DNA of 64,000 nucleotides from positions 128,001-192,000 of the forward strand of contig CAWFQL010000012.1 of NCBI GenBank assembly GCA_963817915.1. Direction: 5' to 3'. The DNA comes from an uncultured candidate division Zixibacteria bacterium (GTDB lineage Bacteria; Zixibacteria; MSB-5A5; UBA10806). Made by a program: the position numbers. Positions 24,001 to 30,000 of this stretch are shown here, piece by piece (position 1 is the first letter of the stretch; every line of letters starts with the position of its first letter).

Positions 24001-27000
24001 TCGATAAAACAGGCACCCTGACGTTGGGCAAGCCGGAAGTCACGGATATTCTAGCATTTCCGCCATTCGATAAGGACCAGGTACTGCTATATGCCGTATC
24101 GCTTGAGAAACTTTCCGAGCACCCGCTTGCCGAAGCTGTCATTAATAAGGCTGCAGAAAAAAACATTGCTCCAATGTATGTCGATAAATTCGCCGCTCTT
24201 CCGGGGTTTGGCATAGAAGGATTCATTGGAAGCAGGAAGATACTTCTGGGCAATACACGGTTAATGAGCGAGGCCGGCATAAATTTGACTGAAAGTATCG
24301 GCGCGTTAGAGAAATTTTCCCTCGAAGGTAAAACTCCGGTAATTCTGGCGATTGACCGGGAGATTGCCGGAATAATCGCGGTATCGGATACAATAAAACC
24401 CGAGGCTATTTCGGTTGTGGAAAAACTCCACCAACGAAAAATCTCGGTTGCGATGATTACCGGTGACAACGAATTTTCCGCAAAGGCGATCGCGGATAAA
24501 ATTCAAATTGACCATGTTTATGCTAATGTTCTTCCCGATCAGAAAGCCAGTCGAATCAATAAACTCCAGGAAACAGGATCGGTCGTAGCAATGGTTGGAG
24601 ACGGTATCAATGACGCGGTCGCCCTGGTTCAGGCAGATGTCGGAATCGCAATCGGCTCAGGGACAGATATCGCTATGGAAGCATCCGATATCACTTTGAT
24701 GAAAAATGATCTCAACGGAGTTATTAAATCGATTGAACTTTCAAAGAAAACATTAAGCACGATAAAATGGAATCTCTTCTGGGCCTTCATTTACAATATT
24801 ATCGGAATCCCGATCGCCGCCGGAATCCTTTTTCCATTGATGGGCACTAAAGGCCTGCTAAATCCGATGATAGCCGCCGGAGCGATGGCGTTTTCATCGG
24901 TTTTTGTAGTCACCAATTCTCTACGGCTCAAAAAGGCAAAATTGAAAGTATAAATAATCGAAAGCTTTATAAGGAGGTTTTATGTCAATAGATCCAGTCT
25001 GCAAAATGAAGGTTGAAGAGAGCAAGGCCGCCGCCAAAAGCGACTACAAAGGCAAAACCTATTATTTCTGCGCCAAATCTTGTAAGGAAAAATTCGATAG
25101 GGAACCAGAAAAATATTTGGGCAAATAGGCGCTTCGATTTCCGCATAGACGATCAAATGTCAATTGTGGGCATCATTTGGATGCCCATTTTAATGATAAT
25201 AGATTCACATTAACTCCCGTTATCCCCAAAATTATTGTTTCCATCTTAGACCGATTTTAGTATTATAGCCGCATGGTTTTGACTCGCTCGAGCCCGCTAA
25301 CTAATTTTCCCAATTTTTCATTGATAGATACTATCCCCATTAGATTTAATTCAAGTTGTCCCCAAAATTACTCACCCATTTATTTAAAGGAAATATAATA
25401 AGAATCAAAATGAGATATTGATGTAAGCGCGAATAATTTACCGAGTAAGGAGGCCCGATGGCAAAAAAATTATTATTGATGCTATTGTTTCTAACATTCC
25501 TAACGGCGACATGCTTTGCCCTGGAGGTAATTCAGGACACTACCGCCGGACCTCCGGCTCCAGCGCCGCCGACCAATGTGCGGGTGGCTGATAAGCCAAA
25601 CGACGCCGGACATGGCCTGATCGTAAAATGGGATTTGTCCATTGATGACTCCAATGGTCTTGGCAACGTAGTAGCATATGATATTCAACGATCAGCCAGC
25701 GCGGACGGCCCCTTTATATCAAGAGGAGTTGTGGCCAAAGGGATGAATTCCTATGCCGATGTCGATGAAACAGTGCCATCAGCGGATAACCCAAGCCTCA
25801 ATTACATGGCCCCCAATAGCACATGGTACTATAAAGTCGTATCGATCTCGGACAAGAATGTCCGTTCGAATCCCAGCGAAGTTATTTCAGGCACGACAGT
25901 TGAAAATTGGATTCATACGGGTAAGATCCCTATTTTTGTAGCCGCCATACTTTTTACTGTATTCATTTTGATTTTCATTCAGGTTGCAAAGAAGGGCAAA
26001 AACCTTTACGTCAGGCCGATCGCCGGTATCAATGCTGTCGATGATGCCATCGGCAGAGCTACCGAGATGGGCAAGCCTATTCTTTTCATTCTTGGACTTG
26101 GTACAGCCGGTGATATCGCGACTATCGCAGGGTTTACGATTCTTTCGCGCGTAGCCAAACGAACCGCGGAATATCAAACGAAAGTAATTGTGCCTGTTCA
26201 AGACCCCGTCGTGCTTGCTGTCGCGCAAGAAACAGTTAGAACAGCTTATCTTGAGGTTGGCCGTCCCGATCAATACAATCCTGACAATATCTTTTTCCTT
26301 ACATCGATGCAATTCCCGTATGTGGCGGCTGTCAATGGCATCATGCTTCGCGAACGGCCCGCGACAAATTTTTATATGGGCACATTCTATGCCGAATCGT
26401 TGATTCTCGCTGAAACCGGCAATATCGCGGGTTCTATTCAGATAGCGGGTACTGATCAAATCGCTCAGCTGCCGTTTTTTGTCGCGGCCACCGACTATAC
26501 ACTTATCGGCGAAGAGCTTTACGCGGCCTCGGCTTATCTTTCTCAAGAACCGGTCCAGCTCGGTACCCTTAAAGCTCAGGATTATACTAAAGCAGTTGTC
26601 ATGGCTATAATAGTTTTGGGCGCAATCGCAATCACCCTCGGATGGACCTTCATTCGAGATATGGTAACTATAACCCTGTAACCTGGAGACACTATGAAAA
26701 GAGAAATTCCATTATTGATTGTCATGGTTACAGGAATACTGATGTTTTTTCAGTATTTTATACCAAGCAATCTTTCCGAGAGAACATTTACCTTTTTGAA
26801 TGATTGGGTAATGGTAATCGGTATTCTTTCGTTGCCATTAGGAATCTGGAGTCTGGTTAAGGCCAATATTCAAAAATTATCTATTAAAGATGAATGGTTC
26901 TATTCGGCGGTCTTGCTCGCTGGCTTTTTTGTCATGGTCATAAGCGGCTTAAAGCCTAACTGGAGAACTGGTAGCGATATGCTGCATGTCACACTTTTCA

Positions 27001-30000
27001 ATAATATCCTTATCCCCATCCAGTCTACTATTTTTTCGCTGCTGGCATTTTTTGTCGCCAGCGCGGCTTATAGAGCATTTCGAGCGCGCTCAGTGCTCGC
27101 GACTATTCTCTTGGTCACCGCTTTGATTATCATGTTCCGTTTAATCCCACTCGGTCCGATCTCGGACGTCAACAATTGGCTTGTCGAAAAAATATTAACT
27201 GTTCCCAATATGGCGGCTAAACGGGCCATCGCGATGGGTATCGCGCTCGGCGCGACCGCAACGGCCATCAAGATCATCATGGGAATCGAACGAACCTATA
27301 TGGGTCGGGATTAGGAGGCGATGGTAATGGAATTCTTACACAGAATGATGCAAATCGACCGTCGCTGGATTTACCTGGCAATAGGTCTCGCAGTTATTAT
27401 ACCCGCGATGATACCATTTACGGTGCCGGTTTCTGTTTCCACTGAAGTAAAAAAGATTTACGACTTCGTGGAAAATCTTGGGCCGAATGATTACGTAATG
27501 GTTGCTCTAGATTATGATCCATCCTCAATGGCCGAGCTAAATCCCATGGCAGAGGCAGTGCTTAAACACGCGTTCTCGCTTAATAGAAAAGTCGTCATCG
27601 TAACCCTGGCGCAATTCGGTCCCGGGATGGTAGAAGAGATAGTTACCCGACTCGGCAATGAATACAAGAAGGTTCGCGGAGTGGATTACACATTCCTCGG
27701 CTATCGGCCTTATCCGGCCATCACAATCATGCTGATGGGCACCGATTTCCGCGTACCGTTCCCGCAAGATTATTATGGGACGCCGCTTGATTCACTTCCA
27801 ATGATGCGCGGTATCAAGAATTTTTCGAATGTTAAAGGTGTTATTGATCTCACCGCCGGCAATACGGCCGATTTCTGGATCACCTACGGTAATGGTCGCT
27901 ACGATGTGCCTCTTGCCATCGGGATTACAGGCGTTATGGCCGCCGACTATTATCAATACCTTCAGTCCAATCAGATATTTGGGATTATTCCTGGCGTTAA
28001 GGGAGCCGCGGAGTACGAACGGCTTATCGATAAGCCGGGTCAGGGAATGCAGCAGGCTTCATATCAGGTTGTCGCCCACTCAGTTATTATTCTATTCATC
28101 CTGCTCTCAAATATCGCATTCTTTGTCACCCGCAACCAGAAATCAAAGACGGGAGGTGTGAAATGACATCTCAATTATTATGGAACACTGTCGCCGCCTT
28201 CCTTACCCTTTGCATATTCAGTTTTCTATACAAGGATAACCCCTTCTATAAATTCGCGGAGCGGCTCGTGGCCGGTATCGCTACTGGCTATTGGACTATG
28301 CTTTTGTTTCACACCAACTTTGTGCCGATAGTCTGGAACCGTCTGGTTCATGAACACAATTATTGGTATATTATTCCCACATTTCTCGGGCTTTTGATGT
28401 GGACTCGTTTTTCAAAAAAATGGTCGTGGCTATCCCGTTATTCGATCGCCTTCTATATAGGTATCTCGTCCGGTATTTCAATTACCCTGGCGCTTTACGC
28501 GTCGCTTTTCAGACAGTTAGAGGCGACAGTCAAATATCCCCTAACAATGGATGCGGCGGGATTGTCTGCATTGCTGATCATCATCGGAGTAATATCCGCT
28601 CTCATATACTTCTTCTTCTCAGCCGCACATAAAGGCGCGATGGGATTTGGTTCGAAACTTGGAATTTATATCATTATGATCGGATTCGGTGCCGGTTTTG
28701 GCCTTACGGTAATGGGACGTATAGCCTTGCTGGTTCAAAGAGTTATCTTCCTGAAGGGGTATGTTCAATCCTTTTTTGGGATGTAGCTAAAGGACTATTA
28801 AATTGTCCGCATAGGGGCCGGCTATCCGGCCTCTTTGCTTTTCTATTCGCGAGCATCAGATTTTATTTGGAACCTATACGATAAAAACATATATATTACT
28901 TTAGTATGTCATCAAGTCGTGCCAGGGTTTATTTTGTAGTCTTAATAACGGTTTCATTCGGCCTGTCATGTGTCTATTTCAATACTATGTTCACGGCTGA
29001 AAAGAAATTTAAGCAGGCGGAAAAAAGCCAGTTCGCCGAAAAGATCCAAGACCAAAATATGAATGCTCCGCCGCAAAGTATCCCCAAGCCGAAGCAAGGC
29101 AATAAGCGATCCAGATTTGAGGAAGGCGTGACCGTAGCAGATCCTCAGGAAAAAGCGCTTTACGATGATGTTATTAAGAAAGCCGGAACAGTCCTGAAAT
29201 ATCATCCTAATTCAAAATGGATAGATGAAGCCCTCTGGCTCATAGGCAAATCATATTTTAATACCGGCGAATATACTCTGGCCGATAGAAAATTCAAGGA
29301 ATTGGTAACCAATCATCCGGAATCAAAATACGCCGATGACTCCTACTACTATATGGGACTCTGCGAAATAATTCTGGGGCATAGCGATGCCGCCTTGACA
29401 GCATTCAGCGAAATCGAGCACTCCAAGAAAAAAAGCCCATACATGGATGATGTTTATTTCACGGGCGGAGTAATGGCCATGAACTCTGATAACTATTCGG
29501 AGGCCGTAGAGCTTTTCAAAAAATATCTTACTGAATTTTCCGGCGAGGATTCCTCCGCGCAAGCCTCGTTCATGATAGGTAAGAGCCAAGAAAAATTGGG
29601 CAATTACATGGACGCCTACCATGCCTACAAAAATGTCGAAAAATACAAACCATCAAAGCAGCTTTATTTCGATGCTACCATTGCGGCCGCCTCGGCAATC
29701 TTAAGAACCGATTCGATTGCGGTAGGAATGGCGGTCCTTCTGGATCTTGCCGATAATCAAAAATATTTCAGCAGATCCGGCGAAATTCGAATGAAGATAG
29801 CCGAAGGATATTACCTCGAAAAACAATTCGATAAGGCAATTGAAATTTATAAAGTCGTTACGGAAAAATATCCTCGAACCAATGATGCCGCTGAAGCTTA
29901 TTATCGCCTGGGAATTATTTATCAAAATGATTTATTTGACATTAAATCCGCAAAGGAATCCTTCACGAAGGCGCAAGGCGAATATCCTCAATCGGAATAC

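Follow-up and report, generated by a model that had tools for sequence, protein, structure and literature searches.

A recurrent four-gene membrane module of Zixibacteria that may belong to an ATP-driven transporter

What kind of machine is encoded by a set of four membrane-protein genes that is found four times in the genome of one uncultured Zixibacteria bacterium, and does this set act alone? Its first copy lies on the + strand at 25458-28786 of the window, i.e. the whole stretch of 64,000 nucleotides that was analysed, to which all coordinates refer unless a contig is named. An ORF check confirmed four ORFs there, within the boundaries that the survey had assigned to the cassette: A1 (25458-26681, 407 aa), B1 (26694-27314, 206 aa), C1 (27321-28166, 281 aa) and D1 (28163-28786, 207 aa). 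A and B are separated by 12 nt and B and C by 6 nt, while C and D overlap by 4 nt. A terminator-like hairpin (28813-28834, + strand; 9 pairs including 7 G-C, followed by a T-rich tail) is located 27 nt past the D1 stop codon; overall, sites of this kind are no commoner than in shuffled sequences (4 observed versus 4.3), so that its position alone is suggestive. These data support the view that the cassette encodes four integral-membrane proteins, that it is conserved and translationally coupled, and that DUF6754 is the sole described family in it.

Three of the four copies are carried by the window and one by contig C17 (G000:C17:458916-462194). Copy 2 (49203-53110, + strand) harbours a broken A2 gene (49203-50785) encoding two fn3 domains and DUF6754 split over three frames by two +1 changes, near 49973-49987 and 50264-50277, followed by B2 (50799-51461, 220 aa), C2 (51463-52362, 299 aa) and D2 (52379-53110, 243 aa). 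Copy 3 (53180-56706, + strand) is a full A-B-C-D set made of A3 (53180-54439, 419 aa), B3 (54474-55124, 216 aa), C3 (55124-55957, 277 aa) and D3 (55960-56706, 248 aa). The coordinates of the four copies hold, as does the 31-62% identity previously reported between them: all-vs-all BLASTP gives 31.6-62.3% within each of A, B, C and D, and no match between the four families better than E 0.27.

The cassette extends far beyond this genome. DUF6754 was detected in all of the 121 genomes searched from the phylum Zixibacteria, with 2-6 matches each, and in none of 14 well-known control genomes; all of the 80 related loci, which belong to about ten phyla, keep the A-B-C-D order. Both the multicopy, phylum-wide occurrence and the presence in other phyla proposed by the survey are thus borne out. 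With the gene filter used here, 20 loci carry arrays of three modules and 12 carry two. Across Ignavibacteria and Zixibacteria, each of the array positions 1, 2 and 3 has a clade of its own, and C2 clusters with the C proteins that occupy the first position in three-module arrays of other phyla; judging from these sequence groupings, the paralogues are ancient. The survey had counted a D homologue beside C in only two genomes. However, a D match follows 115 of the 128 C genes of the 80 loci under a strict filter for non-overlapping genes, a D-matching ORF is found for 11 more in the raw ORF list (either with an over-long start overlapping C or, in locus L051, fused to C) and the remaining 2 C genes lie at contig ends. 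As D accompanies C nearly everywhere, the earlier low count reflects a detection problem and not a real absence. A literature search retrieved no paper on this system.

As the survey had indicated from its own scans, A alone belongs to a Pfam family. A1 matches DUF6754 (PF20539) over residues 149-401 with 392.3 bits for a cut-off of 27 (1e-117), covering profile positions 3-255 of 257, and is therefore a full-length member; B, C and D have no Pfam family, and the NCBIfam search returned nothing for any of the four. DUF6754 is a catalogue entry without assigned function and covers only one of the six proteins considered below. A1 includes a signal peptide, an fn3 domain, a TM helix, the DUF6754 Rossmann-like domain and a second TM helix, and the AF2 model of residues 149-407 (pLDDT 89.9) displays the same TM/Rossmann-like domain/TM succession. 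The fn3 assignment is backed by a profile search against PDB sequences (A4, positions ~30-133, titin fn3, E 9.9e-25), and A proteins carry 0-2 such domains. The Rossmann-like domain is very conserved; the positive-inside rule (KR bias) places it in the cytoplasm and fn3 outside.

C1 also consists of a Rossmann-like domain between two TM helices (AF2 pLDDT 88.9), which the same rule places in the periplasm. Its conserved residues are found at strand C-termini (D64, D66, Q98, G100, N181, D184, T203, K227, E231 and E233). Fold searches gave no specific PDB neighbour for the Rossmann-like domain of either A or C, the best Z scores (10.1 and 10.2) corresponding to generic Rossmann folds, so that no substrate can be named from them. 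D1 is polytopic, with 6-7 hydrophobic segments. The orientation of its N-terminus is conflicting, as charge bias indicates N-out and the single natural in-frame C-D fusion, that of L051, indicates N-in. B1 is a 6-TM protein predicted to be N-in/C-in (KR bias), and the B subunit is represented by 3130 cluster representatives in public data. Residues S123, R127 and F129 of B are invariant and R130 is nearly so (YRAFRAR loop). In relatives, large insertions occur in the outside loop between TM3 and TM4: among the 150 best representatives of B, 54 have an insert there, including one FG-GAP, one WD40 and one TPR.

Some of these features could be explained by an envelope-modifying enzyme relay, in which the cytoplasmic domain of A would receive a group, for instance an acyl or glycosyl unit, and pass it via B and D to the periplasmic domain of C, which would transfer it onto a glycan, lipid or protein held by the outward fn3 or propeller domains. 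Fourteen of 93 B proteins match Acyl_transf_3 (PF01757), a family of membrane acyltransferases (AT3), at E<=1 below threshold and in a single register, B residues 11-154 aligning with positions 159-279, in the C-terminal half of the profile (best E 9.5e-6). Furthermore, C has a conserved D-x-D-P motif and further acidic or polar residues in a pocket at the strand ends, the place of ligand binding in Rossmann-like enzymes, and the generic fold neighbours found for A include many GT-B half-domains, as read from entry titles. However, none of the 93 B proteins reaches the gathering cut-off (best 25.3 bits for B3 versus 31), B has six TM helices for a profile of 326 positions, and TMD0_ABC is matched equally weakly by 21 of the 93 (best 22.2 bits versus 27), which suggests that the Acyl_transf_3 alignments may reflect generic similarity between helices. 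Among the fold neighbours of A and C, SDRs, sirtuins and RCK domains are equally present, and no gene for glycan or lipid biosynthesis is conserved in the vicinity. An enzyme relay is therefore an unlikely function.

The genes surrounding the cassettes bear on the proposal of the survey that the module is a self-contained complex that transports ions or energises an envelope process. Such a nucleotide-independent inner-membrane complex could be an ion channel, a secondary transporter or an energiser acting with TPR/TonB_C proteins. None of the four cassettes of this genome contains or adjoins an ATPase gene, and ORFs encoding TPR and TonB_C domains follow copy 1 (TonB_C, 29.5 bits, in the ORF 30251-31606). 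Yet, among 27 close same-strand downstream neighbours scanned, a TPR+TonB_C protein was found in only 2, L006 and L010, where it is a single protein of 899-904 aa; as both are close orthologues of copy 1, the link is local only and does not amount to a conserved association with TonB/ExbBD-type genes. In addition, the hairpin separates D1 from the TPR gene. No ABC ATPase was found among the conserved neighbour clusters.

A further argument against a self-contained complex comes from two genes located elsewhere in the genome. The first (G000:C17:63958-65844) encodes a 628-aa ATPase-like protein of the GlmL/MutL family, with the actin (ASKHA) fold; the second, called here the partner (G000:C18:86226-87356), encodes a 376-aa protein with a weak barrel-sandwich N-terminus (biotinyl/lipoyl, RnfC_N-like). 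The ATPase-like protein matches Pfam MutL (PF13941) end to end (427.6 bits versus 27, positions 1-450 of 450), has weak MreB-like_C and hydantoinase matches and carries an N-terminal D-x-G-S-T-T-T-K motif, which we take to be the ASKHA phosphate-1 motif. It shares this full-length match with GlmL/MutL, the accessory protein of glutamate (methylaspartate) mutase, and with Or-4 but differs from both by ~135 additional C-terminal residues, by low equivalog scores (229.4 versus 475 for GlmL, NF040745; 221.8 versus 600 for Or-4, NF040744) and by its association with membrane modules; it also falls below the glmL_fam subfamily cut-off (167.5 versus 204). ATP hydrolysis by this GlmL-like subfamily is putative.

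This genome has exactly one PF13941 gene and one partner homologue, unlinked to each other and to the four cassettes. In other genomes, they are frequently adjacent to the modules: L024 and L080 show the order ATPase, partner, then ABCD arrays, and in L081 the partner lies directly upstream of A. The ATPase-like gene is within 5 kb of a DUF6754 gene in at least 49 of 120 Zixibacteria and within ~4 kb on the same strand in at least 19 of 131 Armatimonadota, both counts being read by eye from the listed matches. PF13941 is found in 120 of 121 Zixibacteria genomes, almost always as one match versus the 2-6 of DUF6754, the exception being G085, a 95% complete genome that has DUF6754 without the ATPase, and in 5 of 5 carriers from other phyla. 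Among 151 genomes of the phylum Armatimonadota, DUF6754 and PF13941 occur together in 131, the ATPase alone in 2, DUF6754 alone in 0 and neither in 18, and the corresponding numbers for the partner are 128, 2, 3 and 18; as related genomes are not independent, these counts overstate the association. Two genomes, G127 and G206, carry both genes without any DUF6754 match. The module is thus accompanied by a single-copy ATPase-like gene and its partner and is not self-contained. This co-occurrence and adjacency make an ATP-linked machine likelier than a role without a nucleotide-driven component, and a self-contained complex appears quite improbable. The conserved membrane complex recognized by the survey therefore stands, but a self-contained, ion-transporting or envelope-energising role for it has become less likely.

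As the modules travel with a single actin-like ATPase, they may belong to a new kind of ATP-driven membrane transporter, and we are inclined, with some reserve, to view each cassette as the four membrane subunits of one module of a larger undescribed ATP-linked transporter. Its operation could be as follows. B (6 TM) and D (6-7 TM) would form the membrane core. The ATPase-like protein and its partner, presumably shared by the four paralogous modules (one with a broken A), would bind at the cytoplasmic face, the A domain being the most plausible docking site. Nucleotide-driven changes would then be relayed by B and D to the accessory binding domains and to the C domain, which faces outward, and the substrate, which would differ between paralogues, would cross the inner membrane as a result. 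Uptake would be the favoured direction, since one shared motor would serve several specificity modules with outward binding domains. Alternatively, the module could anchor the actin-fold GlmL-like protein in a tether or adhesion unit involved in surface organisation, motility or signalling, nothing crossing the membrane. The actin/Hsp70 fold class of the ATPase (PF13941) and the outward fn3, FG-GAP, WD40 and TPR domains, which are typical binding modules, fit this proposal. Nevertheless, two strongly conserved Rossmann-like domains with pocket-like invariants, one on each face of the membrane, and the ~16 TM helices of a module exceed the needs of an anchor, and nothing points to filament formation, making it the remotest of the explanations considered.

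A more ambitious and tentative reading of the ATP-linked transporter is that it represents a new class of primary active transporters, whose motor would be an actin-fold (ASKHA) ATPase and not an ABC, P-type or rotary one. Several four-subunit modules, interchangeable with one another, would share one motor pair; each would have a Rossmann-like domain on either face of the membrane and outward binding domains that can be swapped, and the system would be present in all Zixibacteria and common in several phyla that are mostly uncultivated. If this holds, a so far undescribed six-protein membrane system is found in every Zixibacteria genome searched, and an actin-fold ATPase joins the short list of motors driving membrane transport. 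Such a system could further account for a sizeable group of unknown genes that uncultivated, polymer-degrading phyla carry, and its components and gene coordinates are defined well enough for direct tests.

Two known types of systems invite comparison. Na+-NQR and Rnf comprise two ~200-aa 6-TM subunits, a TM-anchored periplasmic domain and a TM-anchored cytoplasmic Rossmann-like domain. The likeness concerns architecture only and includes the weak RnfC_N/NqrA_N-like barrel-sandwich N-terminus of the partner; NqrF appears among the fold matches of C (Z 8.4-8.6), amid generic Rossmann matches. In contrast to Rnf/Nqr, B and D lack any invariant or nearly invariant Cys, and the only conserved His is H156 of D, so that these residues do not suggest a cofactor site; the Rnf-Nqr family is not among the first 25 families listed for B or D at E<=1. 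In group II ECF transporters and ABC sugar importers, several specificity modules share one ATPase. The present system resembles them by its single ATPase-like gene for 2-6 paralogous modules per genome and by its outward domains. However, no ABC or ECF family exceeds the cut-off for A-D (Pfam, NCBIfam), and the proposed motor would be an actin-fold protein instead of an ABC nucleotide-binding domain.

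The first cassette of the window consists of four ORFs on the + strand, A (25458–26681, 407 aa), B (26694–27314, 206 aa), C (27321–28166, 281 aa) and D (28163–28786, 207 aa), which lie where the survey's finding had placed them. According to the ORF listing, A and B are separated by 12 nt, B and C by 6 nt, and C and D overlap by 4 nt. A second copy (49203–53110) and a third one (53180–56706) are found in the same window and a fourth on contig C17 of the same genome (458916–462194). The paralogy of the four copies was confirmed by all-vs-all BLASTP, with 31.6–62.3% identity within each subunit type and no similarity between different types. 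As had been proposed, A alone matches a Pfam family, DUF6754 (392.3 bits), and an NCBIfam search of the cassette subunits gave no match; judged from their sequences, B, C and D are without any described family, A alone having one. B2, C2 and D2 are intact, unlike A2 (49203–50785), whose reading passes through three successive frames (two +1 changes, near 49973–49987 and 50264–50277). No long single-base run is evident at these shifts in the stretches inspected; A2 may be a genuine pseudogene, or its frame changes may come from faulty assembly. Promoter-like sites are not in excess in the region (10 versus 8.4 in shuffles).

The C alignment was used to scan one genome from each species, which gave 581 confirmed stretches; the best 80 loci were taken further. 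These belong to Zixibacteria, Eisenbacteria, Ignavibacteria, Fermentibacteria, Latescibacterota, WOR-3, Poribacteria, Armatimonadota, Acidobacteriota and unnamed MAGs, in agreement with the claimed occurrence outside Zixibacteria. All of them keep the order A-B-C-D on a single strand, and the gene filter found three tandem modules in 20 of these 80 loci and two in 12. The cassette is thus a conserved and coupled set of four membrane protein genes. D had previously been seen beside C in merely two genomes; this low count is a detection artefact, as D follows 115 of the 128 C genes inspected with a strict filter and a further 11 have either a D-matching ORF discarded by that filter or a C-D fusion (two are at contig ends). 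DUF6754 was detected in all of the 121 Zixibacteria-phylum genomes searched (2–6 matches each), which upholds its phylum-wide presence, and in none of 14 control genomes; the B profile retrieves 3130 cluster representatives at E ≤ 0.001. A tree built from 130 C sequences has a separate clade for each of the three array positions, with Ignavibacteria and Zixibacteria mixed in them, so that the triplication must be old and its order retained. Of the four C proteins of the present genome, C2 belongs to the clade of position 1, C1 is close to that of position 3, and the other two (C3, C4) branch elsewhere.

In the AF2 model of C (pLDDT 88.9, 65-row alignment), one TM helix at each terminus flanks an alpha/beta domain whose strands run parallel. 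The same order of elements appears in residues 149–407 of A, a subunit described earlier as poorly modelled and now at pLDDT 89.9 for this region (103-row alignment). It is well established that positive charges of membrane proteins tend to lie inside. This rule, applied over whole alignments, predicts that C is N-in/C-in with a periplasmic domain and that the six TM helices of B leave both termini inside. The domain of A would be cytoplasmic, since a signal peptide and an fn3 facing outward precede it. For D, the charge bias of the loops suggests an N-out orientation and the sole natural C-D fusion suggests N-in. This fusion, found in one complete Zixibacteria chromosome (locus L051, 9001–10716), joins C and D in frame through an Arg/Lys-rich linker (571 aa). 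A search for longer homologues of C, in itself weak evidence, returned no fused form. The cytoplasmic Y-R-A-F-R-A-R loop of B contains a nearly invariant R130, and S123, R127 and F129 are invariant. The conserved residues of C are located at strand ends (D64, D66, Q98, G100, N181, D184, T203, K227, E231, E233), and 30 positions, many with charged residues, are invariant in the A domain. Neither A and C nor B and D show sequence kinship according to hhalign (probability <1%). When the complex of B, C, D and A (149–407) was predicted with A as partner, its score was matched by a control in which C had been replaced, and the prediction speaks neither for nor against such a complex.

Foldseek searches of the PDB with C and A gave no match at E ≤ 0.001. 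In the wide VIA search with an exhaustive aligner, the best structural neighbours were 1kjn for C (Z 10.1, 138 aligned, rmsd 3.1) and 3u31 for A (Z 10.2, 145 aligned, rmsd 3.9). The neighbour lists of both include SDRs, RCK/KTN domains, sirtuins, GT-B halves and transhydrogenase dIII, and ten PDB entries are common to their top-50 lists. These models represent two confidently predicted Rossmann-like domains; the matches are generic and give the fold class and not the function, no specific neighbour of either domain being found in the PDB with Foldseek and VIA. Profile searches against PDB sequences gave no match for B and D, two for C at E ~1, and fn3 as the sole match for A. In the ESM Atlas, C matched unnamed clusters only, and residues 178–380 of A had no usable match once DUF6754 was left out. 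Weak matches of B to Acyl_transf_3 (14 of 93 members; top score 25.3 bits, cut-off 31) are paralleled by equally weak ones to TMD0_ABC (21 of 93), and nothing of note recurs for D. The RxxR likeness of the RAFRAR loop of B to Acyl_transf_3 was dropped, the weak alignments placing B on the other half of the profile. No mention of DUF6754, PF20539 or PF13941 was found in the literature searched, and the one article that came up for GlmL together with glutamate mutase (PMC4682846) appears unrelated.

The outward parts of the cassette are variable. A carries no fn3 domain (264–270 aa forms), one, or two (A2). The outward TM3-TM4 loop bears an insert in 54 of the 150 best B representatives (protein lengths 261–631 aa); in Pfam, 49 of these 54 have no match, FG-GAP, WD40, TPR and IF3_N are found once each, and Acyl_transf_3 once and weakly. 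At this site, the B protein of L023 bears an FG-GAP insert of ~390 aa. In another B relative (P0252, 278 aa), an IF3_N translation-factor domain (E 1.7e-15) lies inside the predicted outward loop, which is odd for the periplasm. An envelope-modifying relay could be imagined, but we regard it as unlikely and prefer an ATP-linked transporter.

The first module is followed by a TPR ORF (28906–30222) and a TPR+TonB_C ORF (30251–31606), from which a self-contained membrane complex linked to TonB had been envisaged. This link is not conserved: of the 27 neighbours scanned that lie close downstream on the same strand, 2 carry TPR+TonB_C. A hairpin lies 3' of D. On conservation the TonB idea thus fails, and such a complex appears decidedly unlikely. 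The two ORFs match, in two different frames, a single 899-aa protein of a related locus, L006 (residues 12–400 aligned to one and 539–891 to the other, with an unaligned repeat-rich linker between), which indicates that the gene at 28906–31606 is split or frame-shifted. Two genes recur 3' of the third module in three-module arrays, each of them in 18 loci (L017, L022, L028 and 15 more): one encodes a small protein (~110 aa) that is very basic, the other a pyruvate phosphate dikinase with a Lys-rich N-terminal extension. We read this association as lineage synteny. An ADP-forming acetyl-CoA synthetase lies 3' of three-module arrays in six loci, and the remaining neighbours in the related loci are heterogeneous, none being conserved. 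Copy 3 is followed on the same strand by genes for two large secreted proteins of 604 and 645 aa, paralogues of each other (56753–60464). Upstream of copy 2, a 723-aa ORF (46114–48285, - strand) has the look of a metallophosphatase or 5'-nucleotidase that is secreted, and its C-terminal segment resembles sorting domains on module neighbours in other loci.

Two further genes are associated with the cassette, encoding a GlmL/MutL-family actin-fold ATPase-like protein (PF13941) and a barrel-sandwich partner. The genome harbours several modules versus a single copy of each of these genes: the sole PF13941 gene (contig C17, 63958–65844, 628 aa, 427.6 bits) and the sole partner homologue (contig C18, 86226–87356, 376 aa, with only a weak Biotin_lipoyl match), both unlinked to the cassettes. 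Identity of the ATPase with the GlmL or Or-4 equivalog was ruled out (scores of 229 versus a cut-off of 475 and 222 versus one of 600). Directly 3' of the ATPase gene, a 183-aa ORF (contig C17, 65932–66483) is transposase-like by eye. In two related loci, L024 and L080, the ATPase gene precedes the partner gene and then the ABCD arrays; their ATPases share 79% and 67% identity with that of the present genome, whose partner is 69% identical to the L024 one. In L081, the partner gene is immediately 5' of A.

In 151 Armatimonadota-phylum genomes (PF13941 at E ≤ 1e-20), PF13941 and DUF6754 occur together in 131, PF13941 alone in two (G127, G206), DUF6754 alone in none and neither in 18, counts that include related, non-independent genomes and hence overstate the statistics. 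For the partner and DUF6754, the figures are 128 with both, two with the partner only, three with DUF6754 only (in two of them, G167 and G198, candidates outnumbered those scored) and 18 with neither; all three families are absent from the identical 18 genomes. PF13941 is also present in 120 of 121 Zixibacteria genomes, nearly always as a single match (the one genome that lacks it, G085, is 95% complete), and in each of five carriers from other phyla (in pieces in G125). Read by eye from the best 150 rows, which gives lower bounds, no more than 5 kb separate the ATPase gene from a DUF6754 gene in at least 49 of the 120 Zixibacteria; 31 of these pairs are divergent, mostly ~1 kb apart, and 18 co-directional, mostly 2.2–3.1 kb apart, a spacing that fits the succession ATPase, partner, A. 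At least 19 of the 131 Armatimonadota have both genes within ~4 kb on the same strand, again by eye. Despite the kinship of the genomes, two phyla show the same pattern, and it is seen with either gene order; the cassette is linked phyletically and positionally to a single ATPase-like gene and a single partner gene. Rearrangement may explain why the ATPase gene stands apart from the modules in the present genome and next to them in many relatives.

The module could also serve to anchor an actin-fold protein to the membrane, which we consider very improbable. In the transporter model, to which we give somewhat more credence than doubt, A–D, the ATPase-like protein and its partner would form one machine. 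The ATPase pair would dock at the cytoplasmic face, where the A domain would be the obvious site, and nucleotide-driven changes would carry the substrate through the membrane, the paralogous modules having different specificities. Importers exist in which one ATPase serves several specificity modules, and uptake is favoured by analogy with them. New here are the confident models of the A and C domains, the correction of the count for D, the old paralogy of the three array positions and an independent check, in two phyla, of the link to the ATPase and partner. Compared with the transporter classes tested, the architecture of the module fits none.
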